From NCBI GenBank assembly GCA_965208835.1, contig OZ242358.1:1-64000 (forward strand): 64,000 bases of DNA, read 5' to 3'. The notes under the pieces were generated by a model. That model searched no databases. It saw only the letters and a program-made list of their open reading frames with translations, and was not told where the DNA came from. The position numbers were made by a program, and so were the translations under genes. Below are positions 4,045 to 47,375 of this stretch, piece after piece. Origin of the DNA: Candidatus Latescibacterota bacterium (GTDB taxonomy: Bacteria; Latescibacterota; UBA2968; GCA-2709665). Every line of letters starts with the position of its first letter. The stretch's first letter is position 1.

Positions 4045-4183
4045 AAACACAACGTTGCCGTGGGCTGACCCGCAGCTTCAAGGATCATGCTATCACGCAA
4101 ATGAGCCCATACGACAAGAGCGCAAAAGCCGGCGGCCTTTGCGCTCCTGTCATCTCGAAACGTCGTCTCGTCCGATCCGTCTC

Positions 4184-5488
4184 CTACCTCTCTCCCATCG
4201 GCGTATAGTCCCGGATATCTTCACCCATATAGATCTGCCGCGGACGCGCGATGCGCTGCTCCGGATCGTGCATCAACTCTTTCCACTGCGCCAGCCAACC
4301 CGGCATGCGGCCCACTGCGAACATAACCGTCATCATGTCCGTGGGCAGGCCCATCGCCTGGTAGATGATGCCGGAATAAAAATCCACGTTCGGATACAGA
4401 CTGCGAGAAATGAAAAACTCTTCTTCCAGCGCGATGCGTTCCAGTTCTACCGCGATGTCGATGAGTGGATTCTTTCCGGTGACTTCGAATACCTCTTCGG
4501 CCGTCTTCTTGATAATCGCCGCTCTGGGATCGTAGTTCTTGTAGACCCGGTGCCCGAATCCCTGGAGCAGCACCTCCCGGTTGTACACCCGCTTGATATA
4601 GGCGGGGATATTGTCGACCGACCCGATCTCGTTCAACATCCTCAGTACGGCTTCATTCGCGCCCCCGTGCGCAGGCCCGTACAAAGCGCCGGCGGCGCCC
4701 GCCGCCGCCGAATACGGGTCTGCACCGCTGCTGCCGACGCCGCGCATGGTGCTCGCGCTGCAGTTCTGTTCGTGGTCGGCGTGCAATATCAGAAGGACTT
4801 CCAGCGCCCGTTCCAGCGCGGGGTCGGACTTATATGCGCTCGTACCCTCGAACATCATCTTCAAAAAATTGGCGCAGAATCCCAATGACGGGTCAGGGTC
4901 CACAACAGGCAGCCCCTGGCTTTGGCGATACACGGCTGCCGCGGCTACCGGGGCCGTGCCCATAAGCCGTCGGATATGTAGTTCCTGAACATCCTCCGTA
5001 CCGATCTCTCTCGCATTGTCGTAGAATGTGGACAGAGACCCCAGCACGCCCACCATCATACCCATCGCGTGGGAGCCTCTTCCGAAGCCGCTTACCAGTT
5101 CGGTCAACTTCGGCTCGGCTTTGACGTACGCCATCACCGATTCGTTCCAGGCATCGAGCTGTGCCTGCGCAGGCAGTTCGCCGTACAACAGCAGATACGA
5201 CGTTTCAAGGTAGGTGCTGTGCTGCGCGAGCTGATCGATCGGATATCCACGATATCTGAGGATGCCTTTTTCGCCGTCGATGAACGTCACGGAACTCTGG
5301 CAGGATCCGGTATTCAGATACGACGGATCGTATCCGAGAAGCCCGAAATCGTCCTCCGATACCTTAATCTGCTTCAGGTCAGCGGTTCGAATGGCGGCCC
5401 CGTATTCGGGGTAAGTACCATAAAGGATGGGTACCTCGTAAGTCTTGCCGGTGCGATTATCCGTAATGGTGAGTGAGTCTTTGTTCAT
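4184..5488 (-). CDS. gltA: citrate synthase
   Basis: GILRYRGYPI, LHADHEQNCS, GPAHGGANE, GFGHRVYKNYDPRA, YPNVDFYSG. Confidence 0.97.
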   Translation of the reverse strand: MNKDSLTITDNRTGKTYEVPILYGTYPEYGAAIRTADLKQIKVSEDDFGLLGYDPSYLNTGSCQSSVTFIDGEKGILRYRGYPIDQLAQHSTYLETSYLLLYGELPAQAQLDAWNESVMAYVKAEPKLTELVSGFGRGSHAMGMMVGVLGSLSTFYDNAREIGTEDVQELHIRRLMGTAPVAAAAVYRQSQGLPVVDPDPSLGFCANFLKMMFEGTSAYKSDPALERALEVLLILHADHEQNCSASTMRGVGSSGADPYSAAAGAAGALYGPAHGGANEAVLRMLNEIGSVDNIPAYIKRVYNREVLLQGFGHRVYKNYDPRAAIIKKTAEEVFEVTGKNPLIDIAVELERIALEEEFFISRSLYPNVDFYSGIIYQAMGLPTDMMTVMFAVGRMPGWLAQWKELMHDPEQRIARPRQIYMGEDIRDYTPMGER

Positions 5489-5524
5489 CCAAGCAAATCC
5501 TTTCAAGTCGTCTGCCGCTGCCAG

Positions 5525-6193
5525 TCAGGCCCGAACCGCATAAATTACACTCTCGAGCGGTTTTCCGGTCAGGCCATGGTCACACGTTTGTTGTTGAGTC
5601 ACCCCGCCGAAAACACGGTCCAGCGCGCGTTCGTAAGAGCGGTTGACGGCATGGCTCCAGATCGCCAGAGTCCCATCCGGACGCAACCGCGTTCTCAGCG
5701 TCTGAAGCGCTGAAACGCTGTACGCGCGCCGGTTCTGCGGGCGCACCACCCGGTCGGGACCGTTGTCGATATCCAGCGCAATGCCGTGATAGCTCCGGGG
5801 ATTTCCCTGTACGTATTCGTAGAAATCGCCGACGACCACCTCCGTGCGCTCATCGTCGAGAACGTCGGCATTGTCCAGAAATTCGCGGTTCCAGTTTACA
5901 ATTCGGGAGTCGAGTTCCACCACGCACACGGAACGCACGTTTGAATAGGCGAGCGCCTGACGAAGGGAGATTCCCAGTCCCAAACCACCGATAAGCAGGT
6001 TGATGTGCCTGCCGGATTTCGATGTTTCCATGACCGTGTCGATCAATGCGCGATTGGACGACGCATTGTAGGTGGCCATTAAGAAAACACCGTTGACGAT
6101 GAGTTCGAAATGGGAGACCGTGCCGGCGTTAACGGACGCAAGCTGTAATTCACCCGCACGGGTGGACGAACGCTGCACAACCCGCCGATCCAT
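5525..6193 (-). CDS. spermidine synthase-like SAM-dependent transferase
   Basis: LLIGGLGLG, VVELD, LDIDNGP; likely start MDRRVV at 6193, since the longer ORF runs into a MITE. Confidence 0.85.
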   Translation of the reverse strand: MDRRVVQRSSTRAGELQLASVNAGTVSHFELIVNGVFLMATYNASSNRALIDTVMETSKSGRHINLLIGGLGLGISLRQALAYSNVRSVCVVELDSRIVNWNREFLDNADVLDDERTEVVVGDFYEYVQGNPRSYHGIALDIDNGPDRVVRPQNRRAYSVSALQTLRTRLRPDGTLAIWSHAVNRSYERALDRVFGGVTQQQTCDHGLTGKPLESVIYAVRA

Positions 6194-33258: not shown

Positions 33259-33313
33259 AAAGCGCGCCGCTGGCGCGAGTGGTGAGGTTCGATAGACATT
33301 GAAAGGAGTCTTG

Positions 33314-35044
33314 ATGCGGTATAGCAGCCTTTTTACGCAGACGCTTCGTGAGGCGCCGGCCGACGCGGAGCTGGTCAGCCATCAACTTGCGCTTCGGGCG
33401 GGGCTGATCCGGCCGCTGGCCGCGGGCATCTTCAGCGCGCTGCCGTTGGGACTCCGGGTCGCACGGAAGATCGAGGCGATATTCCGGGAGGAGATGGCGG
33501 CAATTGACTGCGTGGAACTGCTGATGCCCATCGTGCAGCCGGCTGAGCTCTGGCAGGAAAGCGGGAGATGGAACGAGGTGGGTCCGGAAATGCTCCGGAT
33601 GCAGGATCGATCCGAGCGGAACATGTGCCTTGCAATGACCCACGAAGAGGCGGTCACGGATCTGGCGAGGCATCTGATCAGGAGCTATCGTCAGGTGCCT
33701 ATGAGCGTGTTTCAGATTCAGACGAAATTCCGCGACGAGCCCCGGAGCCGGGGCGGTCTGATACGCGTGCGGGAATTTACGATGAAAGACGCGTACAGCT
33801 TCGACCTGGATGAAGCCGGCCTGGAATCGGTCTATCAGGATATGTACCGGGCCTATGAGAATATCTTCCGTCGGGCCGGCCTGGCGGATCAGGTGGTTTC
33901 GGTGGAGAGCGACACCGGCATGATGGGTGGAACCGGGGCGCACGAATTCATGTATCTGAATCCCGCGGGCGAGGATACATTGCTGATCTGCGACGGATGC
34001 GGTTACCGTGCGAACCGGCAGATTGCCGTGTATGAAAGGGAGGAGGCGGTCGGTGAGACACCGGAACCGCTCCGGGAAGTGGCCACGCCGGGATGCACCA
34101 CCATTGAAGATCTGGCGCAGTTCCTGGACATTCCCGCAAGCCGAACGGCCAAAGCGGTGTTTATGACAGGTTCCGTGCAGGGAGAAGAACGGTTTATCTT
34201 CGCGCTTGTTAGGGGAGACCACGAACTCAGCGAAACGAAGTTGTCCAACGCGGTCGGGGCCGTCGATATGCGGCCGGCGACAGAGGATGAAATCCGTGCG
34301 ATCGGGGCCGAGCCCGGATACGGATCTCCCATCGGCATCGCGGAGGATGCGTTGATCGTTGTGGATGACCTGGTGGCGAAGTCCGGTAACCTGGTATCCG
34401 GGGCGAACAGGGTGGACCATCACTGCCTGAACGTAAACGTGGGCAGGGACTTCGAAGCGGACCTGGTCGCCGACCTGGTGGCGGTGGAGGCGGGGATGCC
34501 ATGCGCTTTATGCTGCGCCTCGCTGCGGTCGGCGCGCGGGGTGGAGGTGGGGAATATATTCAAGCTGGGCACCAGATACAGCGAGAAACTGGGCGCGAAC
34601 TTCCTGGATGAGAACGGCAAAGCCCGTCCGCTGGTGATGGGTTCCTACGGGATCGGCGTCGGGCGCCTGCTGGCCTGCGTAATCGAGGAACACCACGACG
34701 ATCAGGGCATCGTCTGGCCGATTTCGGTCGCGCCGTTCCACGTGCATATCGTGGTGCTTTCCGGAAATCGGCCGCGGGGAGAGCTGGAGGCGGCACAGCG
34801 GATCTGCCGGGACCTGGAAGCCAAGGGGATCGAAGTGCTGCTGGATGACCGCGACGAGCGGGCGGGCGTAAAGTTCAACGATGCGGACCTGATCGGAATC
34901 CCCATCCGGATTACCGTGGGTTCCAGGGGGCTGGCGAAGGGGGAGGTGGAAGTGAAAATGAGAAAAGAGCGGGACAGGAAAGACATCGCGATCGACGCGC
35001 TGGTAGGGTACGTGAAAGAAATCGTCCAACAAGGGCAGGCATGA
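33314..35044 (+). CDS. proS: proline--tRNA ligase with INS editing domain
   Basis: MTHEE, FRDEPRSRGGLIRVREFTMKD, EVGNIFKLG, MGSYGIG, GVKFNDADLIG. Confidence 0.97.
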   Translation: MRYSSLFTQTLREAPADAELVSHQLALRAGLIRPLAAGIFSALPLGLRVARKIEAIFREEMAAIDCVELLMPIVQPAELWQESGRWNEVGPEMLRMQDRSERNMCLAMTHEEAVTDLARHLIRSYRQVPMSVFQIQTKFRDEPRSRGGLIRVREFTMKDAYSFDLDEAGLESVYQDMYRAYENIFRRAGLADQVVSVESDTGMMGGTGAHEFMYLNPAGEDTLLICDGCGYRANRQIAVYEREEAVGETPEPLREVATPGCTTIEDLAQFLDIPASRTAKAVFMTGSVQGEERFIFALVRGDHELSETKLSNAVGAVDMRPATEDEIRAIGAEPGYGSPIGIAEDALIVVDDLVAKSGNLVSGANRVDHHCLNVNVGRDFEADLVADLVAVEAGMPCALCCASLRSARGVEVGNIFKLGTRYSEKLGANFLDENGKARPLVMGSYGIGVGRLLACVIEEHHDDQGIVWPISVAPFHVHIVVLSGNRPRGELEAAQRICRDLEAKGIEVLLDDRDERAGVKFNDADLIGIPIRITVGSRGLAKGEVEVKMRKERDRKDIAIDALVGYVKEIVQQGQA

Positions 35045-35271
35045 ACACTGTTTATATCAAGTTCAAAAGTCGCAGACATCAGGTTAATGGCTATTACGAA
35101 CTGGCGACCCATGCCACGGTGACAAGCTTACCGGATGGTGTGTACATCGTGCCCGTTCAAGCATTGTCGATTCTGGATGAACAGGATATTTCGTATCGAC
35201 AGGCCGCGGAAGACGAGGTGGAGAAGTCTCATGCGCAGCCTATCCCCCGGTGGGATAACAACCCACGATAG
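35041..35271 (+). CDS. small hypothetical protein (76 aa)
   Basis: ATGA overlap with the proS stop; no recognised family. Confidence 0.6.
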   Translation: MNTVYIKFKSRRHQVNGYYELATHATVTSLPDGVYIVPVQALSILDEQDISYRQAAEDEVEKSHAQPIPRWDNNPR

Positions 35272-35344
35272 CCTAAAACGGCCCGTTGTAGATCTGTATG
35301 AGTAAGAATCGTTAACCAATCACATTCGAAATCGAACGCAACTA

Positions 35345-35372
35345 TTGACGAAGGCCCTCACGTGAGTATATT
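35345..35372 (+). promoter_or_regulatory. sigma70-type promoter with palindrome CTCACGTGAG in the spacer
   Basis: TTGACG (35345)-16 bp-TATATT (35367); perfect 10-bp palindrome at 35357-35366. Confidence 0.7.
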
Positions 35373-35428
35373 AAGACAGGTCTGGCGCGATCAAGTAGCC
35401 CCTGAAGTATCGCCCACAGGAGGTACAC

Positions 35429-35656
35429 TTGGCGGCAAGGAATAATATCCATGTCACAGCAAACGGTGGCAAATGGGAAGTAAAGTTAGCGGGCATGGAT
35501 AAACCTCTCGGTGTTCACCCAACACAAGCCTATGCGATTTCGCACGGAAAAGAACTGGCGAGCGGCTTAGGCACTGAGCTGCGCATTCATCGTACAAATG
35601 GTCAATTGGCCGAACGTATAGATTACGAGAATGTGCCCCCTTCTCCCTATGGTTAG
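35429..35656 (+). CDS. DUF2188 domain protein
   Basis: HVT...G.W.VK.......H.TQ..AI..G.E.A......L.IH..NG...ER..Y..P; AGGAGG 5 nt before TTG. Confidence 0.85.
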   Translation: MAARNNIHVTANGGKWEVKLAGMDKPLGVHPTQAYAISHGKELASGLGTELRIHRTNGQLAERIDYENVPPSPYG

Positions 35657-35709
35657 TCTACTCCCCAGAATTGCGTCAGACCGCTCCCCTTTTTGTGTGG
35701 GACGATTAA

Positions 35710-36237
35710 ATGGATTCAATTTTAAGGTGTGAATTTAAAGATATCATTAGCCGTGACACGGTAGGCGATTTTATAGATAGAGTGAACTCACAAATAATAA
35801 GACAGCAACCTTCAACACTATATGTAGAAATTTCCACCGGTGGCGGGCAATTTGAATCTGCTATTTCTCTCTACTACTATTTAATGGGGCAATCTATACA
35901 GACCATTACTCATAATTCACAACGGATTTATTCTACTGGCATATTACCTTTCTTAGGTGGCAAAAGACGATTGGCCACGCCCGAAGCAGATTTTGGCATT
36001 CACTCGATTTATTATCTAACACCACAGGAAGAACGGCTTGATCAGTTTTGGCTCGAACATCGCCTCAATGGTGTAAAGGAATGTAATCGACGTGTCCTGG
36101 ATTGTCTCATAAAACATACTGACATTTCTTTATCTGAGGCACAAGAATTCACAACTGCGCAAAACATAGTGCCTATTTCGGCGAAACAAGCCTTATATCG
36201 AGGCATTATTCACGAAATTAAAGAACTTGAGGCTTAG
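35710..36237 (+). CDS. divergent ClpP/crotonase-fold protease-like protein (AT-rich gene)
   Basis: ISTGGG..AISLY, IYSTG (Ser), R.A.P.A.F.IH (His), ISAKQA...GII. Confidence 0.8.
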   Translation: MDSILRCEFKDIISRDTVGDFIDRVNSQIIRQQPSTLYVEISTGGGQFESAISLYYYLMGQSIQTITHNSQRIYSTGILPFLGGKRRLATPEADFGIHSIYYLTPQEERLDQFWLEHRLNGVKECNRRVLDCLIKHTDISLSEAQEFTTAQNIVPISAKQALYRGIIHEIKELEA

Positions 36238-36331
36238 AATTATCCCATCATTCTTGGCATCATGTTAACTCGACTTAGGTCATCTGGACATATAGATGTA
36301 ATCTGAATCAGTTCCGACCGGATGTCCGACG

Positions 36332-36366
36332 AAAGCCCTGGAGACGCGATCTCCAGGGCTTTTTTT
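36332..36366. terminator. intrinsic terminator, probably bidirectional
   Basis: aaagccctggaga-cgcga-tctccagggcttttttt. Confidence 0.85.
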
Positions 36367-37366
36367 ATTCATCGAAAGACCTGAAGCGAACGGCCTGCTC
36401 CGTGTTGACGGATTCTGCAATAGCCTCGAAGTAGGCGGCGACGTTGCAGGCGTCCATGCCGTTCACCGAGGGCGTGGCGCCGGTCTGCGCGCAGTGCGCG
36501 AATTCGACGAGTTCCTCGTACTGTTCGTCGATCCGGCCGAAGGCCTCCCTATGGCGATTCTCCGGGCCGATCAGGGTGACGGCATTTTCGTCGTGGCTGT
36601 CCCACGTGACCCTGGCCTCGCTGCCCGCGAAGGTGATTTCGTATCCCAGATGCGAGACGTACGACGCGCCGATATAGGAAAGTCGTCCGTCCGCGTACCG
36701 GCCGATAACGGCGCCCAGGTCCGGAGACTCTCCAGCGCCGTCTCGCTTGGACATGAAGGCGGCGATGCTTTCAGGGGCGCCCATGATGTCCAGAATCAGG
36801 TCGATGAAGACAACGGCCATCTGCGCGAAGGGCAGTAGGGGCGCGTTCCTGATGTGGTACCGCCAGTTGTCCGGCGTGAGACCGTACGCGGCGGCGCCCC
36901 CGACCGATGCTTCGACCGAGTGCAATGTGCCTATATCCCCTGCATCGAGACGTTTCTTCAGATGGGAAACGGCCGGGTTCCTGCGGAGGTTATGGCCGGC
37001 CATATAGGTGAGGTCATGTTTCTCCGCGAGCCGCATCATCTCCACGGCCTGAGCGCGGCTCGTCGTCACTGGCACGTTGACGAAGACGTGTTTGCCGTGG
37101 GCCGTACAGATCTTGAAGTCATCGTAATGGCGCGGGTTGGGTGTGGTGATGACGACGCCGTCCACGTCAGGGTCGCCGGCCAGGGCTTCGATAGCTGGCG
37201 CCCGCTTTGCGCCGAACTCCCTGGCCGCCTCCTCAGCCCGTTCGGGCACAATGTCATAGACGGATACCAGGACCAGATCCGGATTCTTCTTGACGGCCCG
37301 CTGATGGTTTATGGCGTAGTTGCCCAGACCGACGAATCCGAGGTTCATGACCGGTCCCTCAGACAA
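36365..37366 (-). CDS. Gfo/Idh/MocA family oxidoreductase
   Basis: GFVGLG, TTPNPRH, GKHVFVNVP (degenerate EKP motif), GHNLR. Confidence 0.88.
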   Translation of the reverse strand: MSEGPVMNLGFVGLGNYAINHQRAVKKNPDLVLVSVYDIVPERAEEAAREFGAKRAPAIEALAGDPDVDGVVITTPNPRHYDDFKICTAHGKHVFVNVPVTTSRAQAVEMMRLAEKHDLTYMAGHNLRRNPAVSHLKKRLDAGDIGTLHSVEASVGGAAAYGLTPDNWRYHIRNAPLLPFAQMAVVFIDLILDIMGAPESIAAFMSKRDGAGESPDLGAVIGRYADGRLSYIGASYVSHLGYEITFAGSEARVTWDSHDENAVTLIGPENRHREAFGRIDEQYEELVEFAHCAQTGATPSVNGMDACNVAAYFEAIAESVNTEQAVRFRSFDE

Positions 37367-37373
37367 AAGCGCC

Positions 37374-39056
37374 TCACGCCGTCCGTTCGATGGTGACGGC
37401 GACCTGGATTAGTGAGGAATCGTGAGCGACGGGCGCGGTCATGTTCCCCGTGAGGCCGCACCCCGCGTGCAGATAGCGCGCCATGTGCAGATCCCATGGG
37501 CCGTTGATGCCGGATATCGATATGCGGTAGGCTGCGCCCTTCCAGCCCAGGACGATCGTACCGCTGTGGATATCGTAGATCAGCTCCTCCTTGCCGTCCC
37601 AGAGGACGATTGGTATGGAGAAAATGACCTGATCGTCGTCCTTGAGGTCTGTGACCCGGTACGTGAGCCGGATGAGTTCGTCCTTGAGGTCGAGTTTGAG
37701 GTTCAGCGGGACCGGACCGTCAAGTCTGAATTCGTCCGAGGCAATCACATCCGCGTCGCCTTCCATGATGCGGTAGGCGCCGCCGGCTTCGTTGACAAGA
37801 ATGCCGAAATACGGCTCAAGCAGCGGATCCGCCTTGTCCGGCTCGGCGATCTGTTCATGGAATGCGTGTTTGACGCCGTCCCGTTTGGCATCGGCAATGG
37901 GTTCGATCATCGGGGTATTGCCAAATTTGACCGAAAGCGGCTGGAGCGGGAGGTGGTACCCCCAGTCGTGGTTGCAGAGGGTCAGAGCCAGGCGCGACTT
38001 TTCGCCGTGCAGAATCGCGTACCCCGCTTCGGCGTCGACCACGTCTTCCACCGTGGCGGCGGCGACCGGGTCGAACCCCGTCCATTCCTCGTCGATCAGG
38101 AGCGCGAGCAGCGCCCAGGCAACGAGACCCGCACCCAGGTCGGTGTTCAGACGGTTGTAGGTCCATTCCAGGCCGGCGACGGCAAAAGGCGACAGATGGT
38201 TCGGCGTATGGGAGAATACGCCCCTGTCAGGATTGAAGGACTGGCAGAAGTCGAGAAGCGCGAGGATTCTTTCCCTGGAATTCTCACCCTCGCCTATGTA
38301 CGAGAGAAGCGCGACCATGGGGTAGACGTACATCTGGTAGATGCTCCGACTGGCAAGAAACGGGAGATGGAATTGTCCGTTGGCCATTTTGAACCACGCG
38401 CATATGGTCTCGAGGAGCCGCCGGATCTGACGCCGGTCGTGTTCGGAAGCTCTGTATCCATCTGATTCTCCATTGAGAAGAGCGGCGGCCAGGAAGGTGC
38501 CCGTTAGGTAGACGTGCGCAACGGAGTGCCCGTTCACGTCGTCATCTCGGAGAAAACCCCCCGATGTCAACCTCCTGTTGAACGCGGCGATGAATTCCCC
38601 GGATCGCTTATTGGCTTTTTCCTCCCGCCCGCCATCCAGGAACAGGTCGCACAGCAGAGACGCGGCTGAGACATGGCAATCGGACAATTTCGCGTCATCC
38701 GTATAGGATGCGGTAAATTCGGCTTCCCAGCGTTCCAGGATATCCCTGTCCACGACATCGGAAAGTATGGGAAAAACCATCGCGCCGTACCCCATCACGT
38801 ATTCCCTGAAACCGGGCGAATTTCTGGCGCCTTCCATGATCTCGGCCGTGCGTTTCATCCACCGGTCCGTCCACTTGAGGTAGACGTCCTCGCCGGAGAG
38901 CCGGTAGAGCGACGCGCCGATAACGGACCAGCAGGCCGGCGCGAAGTTCTCCGGCCGATTGCTTTCGTAGGCGTCGTTCAGGACGCCGTTGTCATCCGTC
39001 CACCGGACGCCAAGTTCGAATCCCTTCTCGAGGCACGCGGTGATTTCATCTTGCAT
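37374..39056 (-). CDS. hypothetical protein (560 aa)
   Basis: long ORF with GGAGGT Shine-Dalgarno, 7 nt from the next gene; no clear motif. Confidence 0.7.
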   Translation of the reverse strand: MQDEITACLEKGFELGVRWTDDNGVLNDAYESNRPENFAPACWSVIGASLYRLSGEDVYLKWTDRWMKRTAEIMEGARNSPGFREYVMGYGAMVFPILSDVVDRDILERWEAEFTASYTDDAKLSDCHVSAASLLCDLFLDGGREEKANKRSGEFIAAFNRRLTSGGFLRDDDVNGHSVAHVYLTGTFLAAALLNGESDGYRASEHDRRQIRRLLETICAWFKMANGQFHLPFLASRSIYQMYVYPMVALLSYIGEGENSRERILALLDFCQSFNPDRGVFSHTPNHLSPFAVAGLEWTYNRLNTDLGAGLVAWALLALLIDEEWTGFDPVAAATVEDVVDAEAGYAILHGEKSRLALTLCNHDWGYHLPLQPLSVKFGNTPMIEPIADAKRDGVKHAFHEQIAEPDKADPLLEPYFGILVNEAGGAYRIMEGDADVIASDEFRLDGPVPLNLKLDLKDELIRLTYRVTDLKDDDQVIFSIPIVLWDGKEELIYDIHSGTIVLGWKGAAYRISISGINGPWDLHMARYLHAGCGLTGNMTAPVAHDSSLIQVAVTIERTA

Positions 39057-40149: not shown

Positions 40150-42498
40150 CTACAGCTCCACCGTTTTGAACGCGTCTCCGGAACGTACTCCGTAGGCGTT
40201 GCCGGTCTTTTTCAGGTGGAGCCCGGTCTCGCCGAAGCCCAGCGAAGTGCCCGAAGCGAGGCAGAGCGAACTGAGGGCATCGTCCTGGATCGTCACGACG
40301 GCCGCGCGTCCCTTCAGGGACAGTCCGTCGAAACGCGCCTCCTCCCGCGAGGGGTTATACAACAGGAGAAAGCGTTCACTCTCCGTGTGGATCCGGAGCG
40401 CCAACGTGGCGTCGGACAGCGTTCGGCATTCGATTTCGATCGCGGGAGGGCGGTGCGTGAATGGCGCGTGTACGGCGGCGAATACGGCAACCGGACCGGG
40501 ACGGATAACCTGGAGGTGGCCGCGGTACGGGAGAACGGCACCGGGCTTCAGGGTACCTCCGTCGGCATGCAGGTCTTCGATCACGTCCTCTTCGGGAGGA
40601 CATTCGGAGACTGTAACCTCGGTGTCGGAGATTCTCGGGATGATCGTCCGCAAGCCGCCGCGATCCATCGTCCACGTGGCGGTGACGTCGTCAATCGCGC
40701 GGGCCGATCGGCCGGAACGCAGGGGTTCGGGGACGTCTGAAGGCACGAGGGCGTCGAGGCCCGCGACCTCCAGATCTCCGGATCGCGCGTGCAGCATCCA
40801 GGTGTACGACCTCTTGTCTCCTGAGACGCTGAAGACGTCGGCGATGAGGGGTTCGCCCGAACTTCGCGGCAGCAACGCGATAAGGCGGGCGTTGCCTGGC
40901 GGCAGGCCCGCCTCGGCCAGCTTCGGACCCGGGGTCACGCACCACATGAGCGGTTTTCCTCCCTCGCCCTGTTCCGCACATTCCAGGACGGTATTGTGCG
41001 ATAGCGGACCGCGTTCCCACAGGCGGGCCCACTCCGGATTCCAGTTGTATCCCATTTCCGTCACCATTTCCCGCCCGCACGACCAGAGGACGAAATTGAG
41101 ATAGTCTTTCTGCTTGTGGGCGGCCGGGATATAGGGACCGTAGTCGATAAAGGCCATGGTCCGCGACGGCTTGTCTTCGCCGTGACGAAGAATCATGAGT
41201 CCGATATCGGGCAGGTGGGCGCTCGCAGCGGCGTAGGGTTCGCCGTCACTTTCGACCGCGGCATCCGGATCGCGGTAGAAGAGCGAATATTCGGTTCCTC
41301 CGTTCAGGTTGCCGCCCCAAACGGTCTTGAGATGTCGCAGCGCCTTCTGATTGTTGTAGACGATATAGGCGATTTCGGAACAAAAGGTGCGCAATGGACT
41401 TCCAACGTGCGAATCGTTGATCGCCGGGTTGGTGTCGTCGGGGAAAGCCGCATCCAGAAACCAGGTATAACACTTCTCCAGAAGGGCGCATCGGGGATTG
41501 GCGTACACGTCGGTGTCCAGATTGCCACGGATGATTTCCGGGATGCCGATGGTCGTCTGGAGCAGCCCCAGGGTGTAGTCGGCCGTGCATTCGTAAAACG
41601 CGCCATCCTGGAAGAACACGCCGGCCTCGGGCTTGAGCATGTCTTCGTACAACGTGACAACGGATCGCAGGATTTCCCGGTCGCTCGCCAGCGCGGCGGA
41701 AGCCGCGATGCACCACCACGCGCCTCCGTGGTCCTGAATGGAATAGTGGGAGAGATACGGTGAGAGGTCATCCGAATATTGATATCCCTCGAGCGTCGAG
41801 GTTCCCGGGTTGTTGAAGGACTCGACGAAATAGTCCCGTACATATTCGACAAAGGCATCGATGGACCGGCGCTGTTCGTCTTTAAATACGTCTGAGTCGC
41901 GGATGAGGTCATACGCGATCAGCACGGTTCGGGCGCACCACGCATCCCTCTGTTTCCAGCCGTCGACTTTTCCGTAATACGGATCGTTCTGATCGTGCCA
42001 GACGTTCTTGTTGACCTGGTTCAGCCGGTAGCTCTCGAAGACTTCAGCGAATCGTTCGACCAGAATGGCGGCTTTTTCGGCGTATCGCACGTCGCCTTCG
42101 ATACCGTAAGCAATTCCGGCGCTCTCCAGGCCGCCAAGGATGTACTTCAGGCGATAAGTGCGGACCACCGCCTGGATATTCCATGTTTCGGAAGTGTCCT
42201 CCGGGTCCCAGTCCCACGTCGCCTTGCAGTCCGTGCATTGAAGCGTGTCGCCCTGGTTGATCAGGCTGTAGGCATACCAGGGTCCGCAACCGCAGTCGGG
42301 ACAGACGACGGTGACGAGCGGCGTCTGGTCACTGATGAAAGACCGCATCCGGTCACGGTCCATCGTCAGATAGTAGCCTGCCTGTGATTTGATCTGACCA
42401 TAGAGATCCTTGGCCCACGCGTGTCGGTTGATATTTTCCCCGGCGCGCGCAAGGTCGTCGGGTTTGTACATGGTGCACGGAATTCGATGGGTTCTCAT
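40150..42498 (-). CDS. heparinase II/III-like polysaccharide lyase family protein
   Basis: DGAFYE...Y, PD...PAINDS, GLMILR, H...D.LNF, G...SHNTV, W.LH. Confidence 0.8.
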   Translation of the reverse strand: MRTHRIPCTMYKPDDLARAGENINRHAWAKDLYGQIKSQAGYYLTMDRDRMRSFISDQTPLVTVVCPDCGCGPWYAYSLINQGDTLQCTDCKATWDWDPEDTSETWNIQAVVRTYRLKYILGGLESAGIAYGIEGDVRYAEKAAILVERFAEVFESYRLNQVNKNVWHDQNDPYYGKVDGWKQRDAWCARTVLIAYDLIRDSDVFKDEQRRSIDAFVEYVRDYFVESFNNPGTSTLEGYQYSDDLSPYLSHYSIQDHGGAWWCIAASAALASDREILRSVVTLYEDMLKPEAGVFFQDGAFYECTADYTLGLLQTTIGIPEIIRGNLDTDVYANPRCALLEKCYTWFLDAAFPDDTNPAINDSHVGSPLRTFCSEIAYIVYNNQKALRHLKTVWGGNLNGGTEYSLFYRDPDAAVESDGEPYAAASAHLPDIGLMILRHGEDKPSRTMAFIDYGPYIPAAHKQKDYLNFVLWSCGREMVTEMGYNWNPEWARLWERGPLSHNTVLECAEQGEGGKPLMWCVTPGPKLAEAGLPPGNARLIALLPRSSGEPLIADVFSVSGDKRSYTWMLHARSGDLEVAGLDALVPSDVPEPLRSGRSARAIDDVTATWTMDRGGLRTIIPRISDTEVTVSECPPEEDVIEDLHADGGTLKPGAVLPYRGHLQVIRPGPVAVFAAVHAPFTHRPPAIEIECRTLSDATLALRIHTESERFLLLYNPSREEARFDGLSLKGRAAVVTIQDDALSSLCLASGTSLGFGETGLHLKKTGNAYGVRSGDAFKTVEL

Positions 42499-43784
42499 AT
42501 CGTCCCCTTGTCAACCTCAAGCATCCGAGGGCGGCGGCCAGGCTGTCGGCCCAGGGCGCGAAGCCTGAAGTTTCCCCACCACGTCCGGAGGGGCTCCGGC
42601 GGATTCTCCAGCTTTCTGCCTTGCGTCTTCTGGATGGAAGTGAGCCGCGCGGCCCCCAGCAGGCCGGGGTGTAGAGAAATCGTGTCGATGCCGCGGGTCA
42701 TGCGGTTTTCTTTGCCCCAGAGGCCGTCGATTTCGATTTCCGTCTCGCCTCGGTATCGCTGCGGCACGTCGTCTATCCAGATCTTCTGCTTATTTGTTTC
42801 CGCATCCCATGCGATTTTGAACCGGTATGCTCGGTCGTTTTCGGGAACGACCGAATTATCAAACGTGTTGAAACCGGGAGTTGGATGGCCGGTTGCAACG
42901 GTCATGCGGTCTGTCAGGATTCCCGTCTGGATTTTTCGGAAACACTTGATGGATCCGTCGTACTCGCCAAGCAGGATGCAGGCTTCAGCGGATACGTCCG
43001 GCGACTTGACTTCGAATTCCAGTGTGCCCCTGGGAATGACGGGAAAGGTCGTGGTCACGAACCCGTACCGTGTGATGAGTTCAAGCCATCGATTTTGAAC
43101 GGGTCTGAGCCTGCTCTCGCAGACATTGTCATCCGGTTCTCCGTCCCGTGGCGGCGGGATCGGTTTCCAGTAAAGCGGGTGATCTTCCCCGTCGATCTGG
43201 TTGCCGCCTACCGATTGCCTTACGTGCCTGACTCTGATTCGCCGGCCGATACCGACGCCGCCGGTCTGAAGTTCCAGTTTCGCGATATCCCGCACCGGAT
43301 TGTTGAACGGTACGGTGACGGGTCGTTCGCCGTCCAGAAGAAACACGGCGGTCTGGCTTGAGAAGTCAAAGCCTTCGAACGTGTAGACGTGTTCGTCGGA
43401 TTCGACGACGTACCATTTGCGCCTGGTGTGATCGTTGAAAGGACAGTTGCCTTGGAACGTGAGTACCCTGCCGGAATCTATCAGTTCCTTTCCGCCCTGG
43501 AACAGCAGGCAGCCGTCCCTCCGGATGTGACATACGATGGCCGGGCGGTCCGCACTGTCATAAAGCCGAAGGGTGTAGAGCGTGTGGTACTCGGGCTCGT
43601 CAAGCACAACCCGCATGGCCAGTTCAAGCGAGCCGGCCCGGTCGGTGATCTTCTCTTTGAGTTCACGGAAACACTGAACGGGTGTCCTCGACCCGTCCAT
43701 CTTCAGGTATCCATCCTCGCCGAAAATATAGTCCTGGTTCCCGTGGACGTCGTGCCAGTTGAAGGCCTGATGGATGTCAACCAT
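42495..43784 (-). CDS. hypothetical protein (429 aa)
   Basis: long ORF with a 4-nt overlap with the lyase gene. Confidence 0.65.
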   Translation of the reverse strand: MVDIHQAFNWHDVHGNQDYIFGEDGYLKMDGSRTPVQCFRELKEKITDRAGSLELAMRVVLDEPEYHTLYTLRLYDSADRPAIVCHIRRDGCLLFQGGKELIDSGRVLTFQGNCPFNDHTRRKWYVVESDEHVYTFEGFDFSSQTAVFLLDGERPVTVPFNNPVRDIAKLELQTGGVGIGRRIRVRHVRQSVGGNQIDGEDHPLYWKPIPPPRDGEPDDNVCESRLRPVQNRWLELITRYGFVTTTFPVIPRGTLEFEVKSPDVSAEACILLGEYDGSIKCFRKIQTGILTDRMTVATGHPTPGFNTFDNSVVPENDRAYRFKIAWDAETNKQKIWIDDVPQRYRGETEIEIDGLWGKENRMTRGIDTISLHPGLLGAARLTSIQKTQGRKLENPPEPLRTWWGNFRLRALGRQPGRRPRMLEVDKGTI

Positions 43785-43877: not shown

Positions 43878-43958
43878 GATTTATACCCATATCCGTTGTG
43901 TGAATCTGTCGAGATTTTCGTGATGGCGGGTTGATTGTCCTCGAACAGGACATTCCTG

Positions 43959-43981
43959 GGAGCGGGGGCGTCTCGCCCTCG
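43959..43981 (+). repeat. GGAG-footed REP-like palindrome
   Basis: GGAG-CGGGGGCG-tct-CGCCCTCG. Confidence 0.5.
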
Positions 43982-44009
43982 ACGCACCGCCGGCTTGTTT
44001 CAATCGTCG

Positions 44010-44147
44010 CGCCTTCCTTCTTCCTCTCACTCCTCACTTCCCACAGCTGTCTTTGTTCTTGCCTTTACTGACCACTGTTTTTCACTATCCACTGCCTCTG
44101 TGCTTTTTGCTTCTCTCTCTCACTTCTCACTCCTCTCCACTCTCTCC
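44010..44147. repeat. pyrimidine-rich heptamer tracts
   Basis: tctcact cctcact tcccaca; tactgac cactgtt..cactatc cactgcc; tctcact tctcact. Confidence 0.6.
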
Positions 44148-44162
44148 TTGTGGATGTCAGTT

Positions 44163-46130
44163 TCAATACCCATGAATCGAATGGCCCGCCCCGGGGAACC
44201 AGATGATATCCACGACAAGGGAAAGCCCCACGCCGGTCGTATACCCCGTCAATATCCCGAGGAAAAAAGGAATATAACGCCTGTACAGCGCCGCCCCGCC
44301 GATACGCAGGATTATAAACTTGATGCACCATGCGATAAACACCGAAAAAGTGGAAAAGTGTACATACGAGATGCCGGCGATCGCGAACCCTACCGGATGA
44401 AGCGGCCACCAGGGGAAGCGGTATTTGAGGAACGTGAGGATGGACATCGCGGCTGCCCCGATGCCCAGCAATATGGGTCGGATGCTGGTCTCGACCGCCG
44501 GGTCCTTCATTTTCGAAAGCGCATTCGCAAAGCCGCTCCGGCTGTATCGCGTGAACGGGAAGTCGTTGAAATTGTAGGCCCCGTGGGTATACCCCAGGTA
44601 GAGAGTATAGGCGATGGATGCGACCACCCCCGCGGCAAACGCCAGGAATATTGCGGCCAACACGCGGGGCCGGTCCTCGCGAGGGCAGAGGTCGGCAATT
44701 TTCGTGGCGTGAACGACGGAGGGCATGAACAGGCCCTTTCCGAACGAAGTAAGCGCGTTCGAAAAGGCCAGGACAGTGAGGCTCGGCCCGGAGAGATTCC
44801 TCGGCCCGATCAGCCGGGTAACAATTTCCTGCTGGCCAATCGGCGTGCAGACAAAGACCAGGCCGACTTCGGCCACGATTCGGGAAACGCCAAGAAAAAT
44901 GATCAGAGTTGCCAGGACGGACAGACATGCAACGCCAATCCCCATGCCGGCCCGCCAGAACCAGAATATGACGAAGACGGTACTCAGGATGAAACCCAGA
45001 ACAGCGGTTCGGTATTTCATCATTTCGTCGGCATCGTCCAGAGGCGCGCTTCGGCCAATGGCGATCCTCATCACGGATCTCAGGTGGTGTCGCGCGATCC
45101 ACAATCCCCAGCCAACCAGTGTGACGAATCCGCCGAGTTGGAGCCATGCAAACTCGCCCGTTGTCGTATAGGTACTGCTGGCGTTAAAGCCGTATCGATT
45201 GAGGATGCCGCTGCGCAGGATGAAGAGAACGCAGAAGAACCACAGGCTGAAGAGGACATCGATGTTTGCGAAGTAGGCGAAGGAGATGGTGAACATGTTG
45301 ATGCGGGTCCAGATACCGGGGAAGTATCGTTCGAAATGCACCCAGGGACCCCAGCGGATATTGGGAATCTGCGGGAATCCGGGTACGAAGTAGTGGATCA
45401 TGTTCCAGCTGATGATCCCCAGCGCAATGGCGAAGCCGATCCAGAAACGCCTTGGAAAACCGGGCTTCTCGCGGTCGGTGAGATCCAGGACCGGGCGCAG
45501 GATCGGGTAACTCAGCCGTTCGCTCTCCACCCATTGGCGTCGAAGTATGACGGAAAGGCTGGTGGAGGCCACAAAGAGGGCCGTGATCAACGCCATCCAC
45601 GCGGCCAGGGGAATGTACCAGACCTCCCAGGGAATGTCCATGCCGGGCGGGCCGCCTTCGAACAGATGGTCCAGCGCATGGTTGACGTTGCGCGGCGCCA
45701 GCCATTGGGGAATGTAGGGATGGAAGAATTCGCCCCACTGGTTTTCGGGCGTTGCGAAATAGTACGGCGCGGCAATTGCGCCCAGGAAATAACCCGTCAG
45801 TCCGACCGAAGGGATGGCGCCGCCGACCAGGCCGCCGGCCAGGGTAACCTTGAGTTCGGTGGGCGAGAGCGCATATCTCGCGGCGAGTTTCCTGCAAAGC
45901 GGATTGAGAATCAGGGCAAGGGTGAGGTAGGCCATCAGCGACCCCATCGGGAAGTGGCTGAGGGTCATGCGGGAAGCGTGGATGACGTACTCGATGTAGT
46001 TGACCCAGACGCACGCCCCGACGGAGACGAGCATGGCCAGAAGGATGGATCGGAGCGTGACGCCCCGGCTGGCGGGAACTGACGCGGACGCGGAATGATG
46101 AGCGATGAGAGGATTGGACGTAGGGGGCAT
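44163..46130 (-). CDS. polytopic membrane protein, DUF6785/DUF6784-like (putative transporter)
   Basis: many TM segments; ILRRQWVESERLSYP, WWPLHPVG, YIPFFLG; start MPPTSN at 46130. Confidence 0.7.
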   Translation of the reverse strand: MPPTSNPLIAHHSASASVPASRGVTLRSILLAMLVSVGACVWVNYIEYVIHASRMTLSHFPMGSLMAYLTLALILNPLCRKLAARYALSPTELKVTLAGGLVGGAIPSVGLTGYFLGAIAAPYYFATPENQWGEFFHPYIPQWLAPRNVNHALDHLFEGGPPGMDIPWEVWYIPLAAWMALITALFVASTSLSVILRRQWVESERLSYPILRPVLDLTDREKPGFPRRFWIGFAIALGIISWNMIHYFVPGFPQIPNIRWGPWVHFERYFPGIWTRINMFTISFAYFANIDVLFSLWFFCVLFILRSGILNRYGFNASSTYTTTGEFAWLQLGGFVTLVGWGLWIARHHLRSVMRIAIGRSAPLDDADEMMKYRTAVLGFILSTVFVIFWFWRAGMGIGVACLSVLATLIIFLGVSRIVAEVGLVFVCTPIGQQEIVTRLIGPRNLSGPSLTVLAFSNALTSFGKGLFMPSVVHATKIADLCPREDRPRVLAAIFLAFAAGVVASIAYTLYLGYTHGAYNFNDFPFTRYSRSGFANALSKMKDPAVETSIRPILLGIGAAAMSILTFLKYRFPWWPLHPVGFAIAGISYVHFSTFSVFIAWCIKFIILRIGGAALYRRYIPFFLGILTGYTTGVGLSLVVDIIWFPGAGHSIHGY

Positions 46131-46138
46131 GGAGATAG

Positions 46139-47227
46139 CTATGCGGTGGGTGATTTGTAAAAGCGCACGGGATCTTCCAGGTCCCAGTCGCATTCGACCT
46201 TCAGCCGGGCAATGAGCTCGCGCCGGTTGTCCTCCTCCAGACAGGGACGGTTCATGGCCTCACCCATGAGGGCTATGGAGGCGGGCCGTTTGCCGGTATG
46301 CCGGGTATGCGGAACATCGGTCTCGTGCCCCTGCCATTCTCTGCCGCCGAAGATGCGGTAGTCGAACATATAGCCGGTCTTGCCTCTCTGTGCGGCGAGT
46401 CTGCACCAGCGAAAGGCGCGGGCGACACGCTCGTGTACGGGAATTCCTGCCGGCGTGCCATCCGGAAACAGGAGGACACGACCGAGTTTGGCGAAGTGTA
46501 CGAATCTGGTATCCGCGTCCAGCCAGTCGACGAGGCTTGTTTCGTCGTCCGCGCCCCACGCGAAGATGTGGCTGATGGATTCCGGCAGACACCGGAGGTC
46601 GCGGGACATCTGCAGTTTTCCGGGTTTGTCGGCCGGCATACTCAGGTGCAGAAGGATTTCGGCGTCCGGCTTGAGGGCCCTGATGCGTTCCGTGAGAATA
46701 TCGACCACGAGCGCGTCCCACTGAAAGGGGCGGAGCGCCCGGCATTTCTCGCAAATACAGTTGCGGCCGATTTCCCGCGCCGGTTCAATGTCGATGCCGT
46801 CCACACCCGGCGCGAGGCGTTCGGCGACAATGCGGCCCATCCAGGCGCGAGTCTCGACGTCGTGAGGACAGAGAGCCGTATCCGGTCCCTTGGCACTGGG
46901 CTTTAGCAGGTGCGGCGGCACGTCCGGTTCGGCCATTGTGTACTCGGATCCGCCTCCGCTGAATCCGTATATCGCGCGAATGAGCTTGAGACCGACGCTA
47001 TGGGCATATTCGACCGCTTCATGCCAGGCGTCGTTGAAGCCCCGCGCGTTGGTCCAGAATACCACGAGCCGATTCAGGCCGGACTCGGCGAGGTGGTCTA
47101 CGTGGGCCCGGTTGACTGAGATGTCCCGGGGGTTATTCGAGTACCCCTTTCGAAAAAAGAGGTTCCATCCGCACTCGAGGGTGCCGCGCAGGTCAAAGCC
47201 GCGCTCTAACGAGTTCATATCGGTCAT
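46139..47227 (-). CDS. hypothetical protein with a CxCxxC motif
   Basis: ALCP, GVDGIDIE, CICEKC; likely start at 47227, since the upstream ORF extension is MITE sequence. Confidence 0.65.
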   Translation of the reverse strand: MTDMNSLERGFDLRGTLECGWNLFFRKGYSNNPRDISVNRAHVDHLAESGLNRLVVFWTNARGFNDAWHEAVEYAHSVGLKLIRAIYGFSGGGSEYTMAEPDVPPHLLKPSAKGPDTALCPHDVETRAWMGRIVAERLAPGVDGIDIEPAREIGRNCICEKCRALRPFQWDALVVDILTERIRALKPDAEILLHLSMPADKPGKLQMSRDLRCLPESISHIFAWGADDETSLVDWLDADTRFVHFAKLGRVLLFPDGTPAGIPVHERVARAFRWCRLAAQRGKTGYMFDYRIFGGREWQGHETDVPHTRHTGKRPASIALMGEAMNRPCLEEDNRRELIARLKVECDWDLEDPVRFYKSPTA

Positions 47228-47229
47228 TG

Positions 47230-47375
47230 CAGTCCGTTGATAGAGTCGCTCTGCAGGCGAGGCCGAAGACAAGGCGCGTGACCGAGTCCCACCCGGCGAT
47301 TCGGCGAGGGCGCGCAACGCAGTATTTCGACCGCAAGGGCCGGCCGTAGCCCGGATGGGCTTTTTCAACGGGCTG
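47230..47375 (+). mobile_element. MITE family A, copy 4
   Basis: cagtccgttga...tttttcaacgggctg; flanks attg/atgg. Confidence 0.88.

Follow-up and report, generated by a model that had tools for sequence, protein, structure and literature searches.

The 64,000-nucleotide (nt) stretch analysed here, referred to below as the window (positions 1 to 64,000 of contig OZ242358.1, GenBank assembly GCA_965208835.1, from a Candidatus Latescibacterota bacterium), carries between positions 35345 and 36366 a gene for a small DUF2188 protein followed by a gene for a ClpP-like protease. This locus is best explained as a small, foreign-looking bicistronic operon that was acquired horizontally. A long-range RNA helix is predicted to join the 5′ end of its transcript to the spacer between the two genes, and comparison with related loci supports the view that this helix behaves like a selected RNA element. 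The module combines parts of known kinds in a new way; it is structured at the RNA level and narrow in its distribution. Related loci were sought in a set of 61 related genomes, that of the window (G000) included.

The long-range helix and its conservation

The helix is formed by GGTCTGGCGCGAT (35379-35391, + strand), where the mRNA is predicted to start, and ATTGCGTCAGACC (35670-35682, + strand), within the 53-nt intergenic spacer. The two arms make 13 base pairs (bp), two of them G-U, exactly as a preliminary description of this DNA had claimed. In the predicted structure the first 13 nt of the mRNA would pair with the spacer past the DUF2188 stop codon and close the DUF2188 cistron in a loop of ~280 nt. 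The helix is present in both the minimum free energy (MFE) and the centroid fold, with a pair probability of 0.99 in the window. For its evaluation, the 100 nt upstream of the DUF2188 start codon and the 60 nt beginning at the stop were searched for their most stable contiguous helix; by this measure none of 300 shuffled sequences equalled the window helix, and 0-1 of 300 did so at each of the four orthologous loci. RNAduplex applied to long flanks was dropped in favour of this test, because long multi-helix duplexes arise in shuffled sequences as well. Another 13-bp helix, rich in G-U pairs, can form in the same region, and length alone is therefore not special. The fold energy of the 347-nt RNA comprising leader and gene is ordinary (z -1.25), and no Rfam family scored above its gathering score.

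All 13 pairs of the helix hold in all five species with an orthologous locus, and the only two substitutions in the arms convert G-U to A-U and U-A to U-G. Variable columns amount to 2 of 26 in the arms, compared with 33 of 77 in the other non-coding sequence (Fisher p 7e-4, a generous value since the species are related) and 24 of 75 among third codon positions. The preliminary description had taken the G-U pairs as a sign of selection at the RNA level, and this reading gained ground: the two fixed mismatches and the two lineage-specific changes all leave pairing intact in the + strand RNA alone, a pattern that speaks for selection on the RNA rather than on the DNA.

A second, independent instance comes from a paralogous gene pair located elsewhere in the genome of a relative (G001, locus L007). 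A perfect 16-bp helix of unrelated sequence occupies the same place there, appears in the MFE and centroid folds and was equalled by none of 300 shuffles. Its 5′ arm runs from -54 and its 3′ arm begins 4 nt after the initial base of the stop codon, the corresponding values in the window being -50 and 16 nt. In a control set of 36 metagenome loci encoding DUF2188, the remaining hits having been dropped for short flanks or as duplicates, no locus had a helix matched by ≤1 of 100 shuffles; 35 of these loci lack a ClpP-like gene and the other (L122) retains only a truncated remnant. Where the ClpP-like gene is broken, at the three loci L008, L009 and L122, no intact homologous helix remains; 9 of 16 pairs were counted on the L008 alignment. 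A 14-bp helix at L009, matched by 7 of 300 shuffles, was not counted: in the alignment its 5′ arm falls on the -10 box of the G001 promoter and is thus probably untranscribed.

The arms could instead be an inverted repeat that matters as DNA, whether as the sites of an invertible segment, as remnants of the terminal repeats of a DUF2188 cassette or as paired operators. They do flank exactly one gene; in G001 they are perfect 16-mers, and a gene for an integrase of the insertion sequence type (rve; L121, G001:C3, 6802-7812) lies ~0.6 kb downstream of the pair. Two low-depth contigs of run X5 also have joints near the borders of the module, one jumping from 35238 to 36289 (1050 nt skipped) and the other joining 36366 back to 35319; with flanking sides of only 31-32 nt these joints are weak evidence, and they may reflect strains that lack the module or carry it in tandem. 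We nevertheless hold a DNA-level role to be very improbable. Both fixed mismatches and both lineage changes belong to the one type in six that keeps pairing in + strand RNA alone. Conservation of the arms exceeds that of neutral-like sites, which would not be expected of dead repeats; their sequences differ wholly between the two lineages, and no further exact copy of them exists in the genomes concerned. Nor did we find a recombinase domain among the scanned open reading frames (ORFs) or, in an examination confined to contigs, a joint that changes strand.

The preliminary description had also proposed that the RNA gates translation, and here the comparison was less favourable. The inner AGTAG/CTACT pairing said to extend the stem is present in the window but broken in two of the five species. 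Similarly, the crossing pairing between 35409-35418 and 35696-35706, which was thought to mask both translation starts, exists in the window, but its 3′ arm, TGTGGG, reads GCGGAA in the four other species. Known precedents for gating of this kind are the type I toxin mRNAs hok and aapA, in which the 5′ end pairs with the 3′ end of the mRNA and locks the ribosome site (fold-back inhibition, fbi); those systems comprise a small membrane peptide toxin and an antisense RNA. The locus resembles them in pairing the extreme 5′ end of its mRNA with a segment far downstream. However, in hok and aapA this partner is the 3′ end of the mRNA, whereas in the window it is the intercistronic spacer, and the ribosome sites are unaffected in the model. 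By partition-function folding, the helix has a probability of 0.96-1.0 at each of the six intact loci. For these six the thermodynamic model predicts about equal unpaired probabilities for both ribosome-binding regions whether the RNA is complete, lacks the 5′ arm or is reduced to the spacer. Therefore, the helix appears not to act as a lock on translation, and the idea of hok-like silencing found no support.

It is true that the presence of a stable and conserved long-range helix at the 5′ end of the mRNA speaks for such gating. In addition, the MFE fold of the G001 paralogue adds an outer pairing between the 5′ end and the region of the protease start codon, and the DUF2188 Shine-Dalgarno sequence sits in a small local hairpin of the consensus fold, kept through one-sided changes. 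Against this stand the loss of the crossing stem, the indifference of the initiation regions to the 5′ arm and the nature of the products, a soluble 75-amino acid (aa) DUF2188 protein and a 175-aa protease in place of a small hydrophobic toxin. A mechanism in which the helix and the crossing stem silence the mRNA until it is processed thus appears improbable to us, and the helix probably serves to give the two genes unequal product levels and not to block translation.

The two genes and their relatives

The operon consists, in order, of a promoter, the DUF2188 gene, the 53-nt spacer, the 175-aa ORF and a terminator. The promoter proposed earlier (TTGACG-16-TATATT; 35345-35372, + strand) was borne out, since it matches the sigma-70 consensus at 10 of 12 positions and both hexamers are identical in all five species. 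The expected start site lies at ~35379, and contigs from RNA libraries start at 35388 and 35409. A palindrome, CTCACGTGAG (35357-35366), is present in the promoter spacer as described, but its suggested use as an operator fared worse: only two of the five species retain it, which leaves the locus without the conserved palindromic operator of type II toxin-antitoxin systems, and judging from these comparisons the palindrome is probably non-functional. The intrinsic terminator found by scanning (36331-36363, + strand; a 14-bp stem and a T run) is conserved in the five species, and in L006 a double change has turned one G-C pair of it into A-U.

The first gene (35429-35656, + strand) encodes a protein of 75 aa from a TTG start, which is GTG in relatives, with a Shine-Dalgarno sequence, AGGAGG (35419-35424, + strand), 4 nt upstream that is invariant in the five species. 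Its identity as a DUF2188 protein was upheld by a match to Pfam PF09954 (56.5 bits, cut-off 22, E 3e-15), by matches to the PADLOC PDC-S16 models, a candidate-defence model (E 1.4e-16 and 1.9e-16; PADLOC was applied to the three ORFs of the islet), and by a match to phrog_3220. The gene evolves with a dN/dS of 0.10-0.24. The predicted structure (pLDDT 87) has the topology beta-beta-beta-alpha-beta-beta, and its strand-strand-strand-helix order fits the N-terminal domain of HicB. The link between DUF2188 and defence reportedly originates with Burroughs and Aravind in 2020. In the available parts of other reports, DUF2188 is called a minimal HicB-like antitoxin domain (PMC13621843) and is tied to defence operons (10.1101/2022.04.27.489752; 10.64898/2025.12.03.692087). 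The window protein is a clear member of this family, which those texts repeatedly place in conflict or defence operons. The operons concerned, controlled by CapH-CapP or linked to Thoeris, differ from the window locus, which has no CapH/CapP, cyclase or TIR gene. The term PDC-S16 did not occur in the literature searched, and a pairing of DUF2188 with a ClpP-type protease was not found in the available text of the literature on DUF2188, supplements being outside its scope.

The second gene (35710-36237, + strand) encodes a protein of 175 aa with the fold of a ClpP serine protease. Its AlphaFold model (pLDDT 96.3) superimposes on PDB 9uxt_A, its best match by sequence (E 8e-8), with a TM score of 0.90 and an rmsd of 2.1. 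Among the 25 structure matches listed, of at least 500, all but one were ClpP chains, and rank 45 was signal peptide peptidase A. The protein falls below the gathering threshold of Pfam CLP_protease (PF00574), the profile for ClpP peptidases (MEROPS S14). Its sole Pfam hit is NfeD1b_N, which scored 18.8 bits (cut-off 40), and a PF00574 search of the genome found two other, canonical ClpP loci and missed this one. Ser75 and His98 correspond by alignment to the catalytic residues in 9uxt and in both canonical ClpPs and are conserved at ≥90% across 31 family members. The position of the catalytic Asp, however, is occupied by Gln151, and by A, S or G in other family members. In addition, the N-terminal ~25-30 residues of canonical ClpPs, which provide the axial loop or gate and the docking of ClpX/ClpA, have no counterpart. 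The protein is predicted, from alignment and model, to be an N-terminally truncated, gate-less ClpP-type Ser-His protease.

The structure 9UXT is that of ClpP1 of Pseudomonas plecoglossicida (PpClpP1). According to the available part of its description, this protein is likewise N-truncated, has a Ser-His-Pro triad and forms a weakly active, wide-pore tetradecamer; it cannot bind ClpX and enters mixed rings with ClpP2 (PMC12900304). The two proteins share a length of ~180 aa, the missing axial loop region, the catalytic Ser and His and a third position other than Asp, although they are only 22% identical and that position is Gln in one and Pro in the other.

Close relatives of the protease are rare. 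A HMMER scan of 1.84 billion representatives yielded 489 relatives at E ≤0.001, one alone above 50% identity, and a word-indexed protein search returned only two clusters, 91-92% identical. A tblastn search retrieved no phage record and nothing beyond two plasmid copies from Duffyella; these are 26% identical, and their surroundings resemble a bacteriocin export locus and lack DUF2188. Scans of viral contigs with both protein alignments found nothing, nor did a metagenome scan with that of the protease. A wider family of N-truncated ClpP-like proteins (L041-L118; ~185-200 aa) occurs in metagenome-assembled genomes of Acidobacteriota, Chloroflexota, Verrucomicrobiota, Actinomycetota and Proteobacteria. 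Its members carry a C-terminal tail of ~15 residues (consensus IPxGxxV..LVF), which the DUF2188-linked clade lacks, and have no fixed neighbour: with an upstream ORF at 53 loci and a downstream ORF at 52, no recurrent same-strand neighbour emerged, the largest cluster comprising five members, all upstream ORFs.

The pairing of the two genes is real and, on the sequences compared, found in one genus only. Of the 14 other genomes of the genus, 4 contain a close orthologue (89-95% identity), each with DUF2188 directly upstream, and all five orthologous loci lie between proS and the same oxidoreductase gene, with low-GC filler of variable content in between. Both genes are under purifying selection (dN/dS 0.08-0.26, which is also the range for the protease alone; pairwise dS 0.17-0.41). 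Three more loci in the genus hold diverged pairs, in which DUF2188 is 44-50% and the ClpP-like protein 25-32% identical. Thus the pair is patchily present as close orthologues and recurs in diverged form. The paralogous pair of G001 is intact among these (proteins 44% and 25% identical), and its protease passes Pfam CLP_protease at 63.2 bits; genes for an ECF sigma factor and a thioredoxin-like protein lie upstream of the pair. In the two others the protease gene is damaged, having lost its 5′ part in G007 (L008) and suffered a frameshift in G004 (L009). Among 53 metagenome DUF2188 loci, a single one (L122) has a downstream ClpP-like gene, which is nearly the same as the truncated form at L008. 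Overall, DUF2188 stands directly upstream of the ClpP-like gene in six of six intact and three of three decayed loci.

A proposed processing helix and protease partner, and the alternatives

The interpretation we prefer, though it falls a little short of an even chance, is that of an acquired bicistronic operon with a selected processing or stability helix, in which DUF2188 is a partner of the protease. A constitutive-looking sigma-70 promoter would drive DUF2188 and then the protease, and the terminator would end the unit. The helix could act as an RNA processing or stability element, either through duplex cleavage of the RNase III type or through mutual protection of the two ends. The fates of the cistrons would then be separated, with DUF2188 RNA accumulating or outlasting a scarce protease RNA. 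The DUF2188 protein itself may be an inhibitor, sensor or adaptor of the protease, and the unit may work like a toxin-antitoxin or defence pair whose dangerous component would be an unregulated ClpP ring. A role as partner or inhibitor is plausible because the gene order is fixed, the helix and the protease gene decay together, and the literature links DUF2188 to defence operons and proposes a HicB-like fold. Complex prediction for the ClpP-like protein with DUF2188 gave scores of 0.67, 0.03 and 0.02 and counts neither way.

Stems cut by RNase III enclose whole units in well-known cases, such as the flanks of 16S and 23S rRNA, and further sites occur in phage T7 and rpsO-pnp mRNAs. Here, too, both flanks of a unit form a duplex, one cut could release or separate it, and the genome carries an RNase III gene; cleavage at this site is putative. 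Two sponge metatranscriptome runs from one study (X8 and X9) each contained one contig identical to the window, spanning 35388-35661 and 35409-35665, just inside both arms, and neither proS nor the protease gene was covered in these runs. The contigs are a weak hint of an abundant, helix-bounded RNA and a much scarcer protease RNA. Runs sharing only a small portion of words with the window (X6, X7 and X10-X21) were set aside and carry no information on habitat.

Several observations weigh against this interpretation. At 13-16 bp in the window and G001, the duplex is short for a classical RNase III site. The helix is supported by two independent intact lineages only, both in one genus. Its 13 pairs stay paired in all five species, and no compensatory double change was found among the 102 predicted pairs of the orthologous set. 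The RNA evidence consists of two contigs of depth 6-7 from a single study, in which X8 and X9 are not independent; contigs cannot show true ends, and such RNA libraries can hold DNA. A HicB-like DUF2188 was not reproduced, as Foldseek gave no match at E ≤0.001, the best VIA match reached a Z of 5.1, and profile searches of the PDB returned spurious repeat hits only and did not retrieve PDB 5JN6. The preliminary description had looked to a defence-island setting, but a domain scan of the surrounding 28 kb detected no recognisable defence genes near the module, the neighbours being housekeeping or metabolic (proS, oxidoreductase, amidohydrolase, MBL-fold, UbiD and DsbD). Lastly, in the wider truncated-ClpP family no DUF2188 gene lies within 2.5 kb at any of 78 loci from many phyla (0 phmmer hits among 3155 ORFs at E ≤10); therefore, the protease does not need DUF2188 in general.

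That the wider family stands alone in many phyla raises the alternative of an ordinary accessory ClpP paralogue beside an unrelated small gene, the helix being a functionless by-product. The window genome does have two canonical ClpP genes, and truncated ClpPs can be part of the housekeeping Clp system, as the mixed rings of PpClpP1 and ClpP2 indicate in the part of that work available (PMC12900304). This explanation does not account for a DUF2188 gene directly upstream at six intact and three decayed loci, for a helix that is selectively conserved and recurs with another sequence, or for the coincidence of broken protease genes with decayed helices, and we give it a small probability.

A protease-based toxin-antitoxin or abortive-infection module would go further than the operon with a processing helix that we prefer. 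A gate-less ClpP ring would be restrained by a minimal HicB-like DUF2188, at a safe ratio, high in DUF2188 and low in protease, that helix-directed processing would set, and once free would degrade proteins without an unfoldase or poison the Clp machine of the host through mixed rings. As in HicAB and other type II toxin-antitoxin systems, a small gene is followed by a larger one in a single operon; the window locus differs from these in having neither HicA nor a conserved operator, and to our knowledge proteases of this kind are not known as toxins. While some toxin-antitoxin or defence role is plausible, this particular form of it seems to us unlikely, though not far-fetched.

Genomic setting and significance

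The operon forms a low-GC islet (35000-36330; GC 0.37-0.51, compared with ~0.6 in both flanks), in agreement with the discrete two-gene unit of the preliminary description. The other features listed there, an AT-rich ClpP-like gene (GC 0.37-0.43), a strong terminator and the lack of mobility genes, were likewise confirmed; none of the 4 + 15 ORFs scanned (~21.8-49.5 kb) has a recombinase or transposase domain. On one side the islet is bordered by proS (33299-35044) and on the other by a GFO/IDH/MocA oxidoreductase gene on the opposite strand (36365-37366). The surrounding 28 kb encodes proteins of the DsbD, UbiD, peptidase S15, glycosyltransferase, MBL, amidohydrolase, methyltransferase, heparinase and sulfatase types. 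Four large ORFs, at 37377-39056 (-), 42498-43784 (-), 43935-46079 (+) and 46142-47368 (-), encode 560, 429, 715 and 409 aa and had no Pfam match at E ≤1e-5; they lie beside genes of the heparinase, sulfatase and methyltransferase types.

Other small ORFs and fragments occur in the islet and at its counterparts. A 76-aa ORF (35041-35271) overlaps the proS stop codon (ATGA) and has no family match; it is kept in L003 and, with a 30-nt in-frame deletion, in L005, and partly in G008, and it may be a real small gene within the islet. In another frame, positions 35241-35258 encode YPPVG-stop, which resembles the C-terminus of DUF2188 paralogues. This segment aligns with a 50-residue DUF2188 C-terminal fragment directly upstream of the promoter in G008, which suggests that the module stands downstream of the remains of an earlier DUF2188 gene. 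In that genome (L119, G008:C1) three low-GC ORFs of 178, 176 and 169 aa without a Pfam match lie between proS and the module (reverse complement, ~4078-5642), and a second copy of the module terminator (~5798-5827, reverse complement) lies ahead of the DUF2188 fragment.

DUF2188 is widespread and recurrent in bacterial conflict systems, and truncated ClpP paralogues are poorly understood; a locus that joins them offers a compact handle on both. The pair opens the question of whether DUF2188 binds or restrains a protease. On the RNA side, nature supplies here a clean case of an entire cistron looped out by a conserved helix, together with a built-in comparison: two different helix sequences occupy one place, and the helix has decayed at loci whose second gene is dead. 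The helix could in this way reveal how bacteria fix the ratio of products within a single operon.

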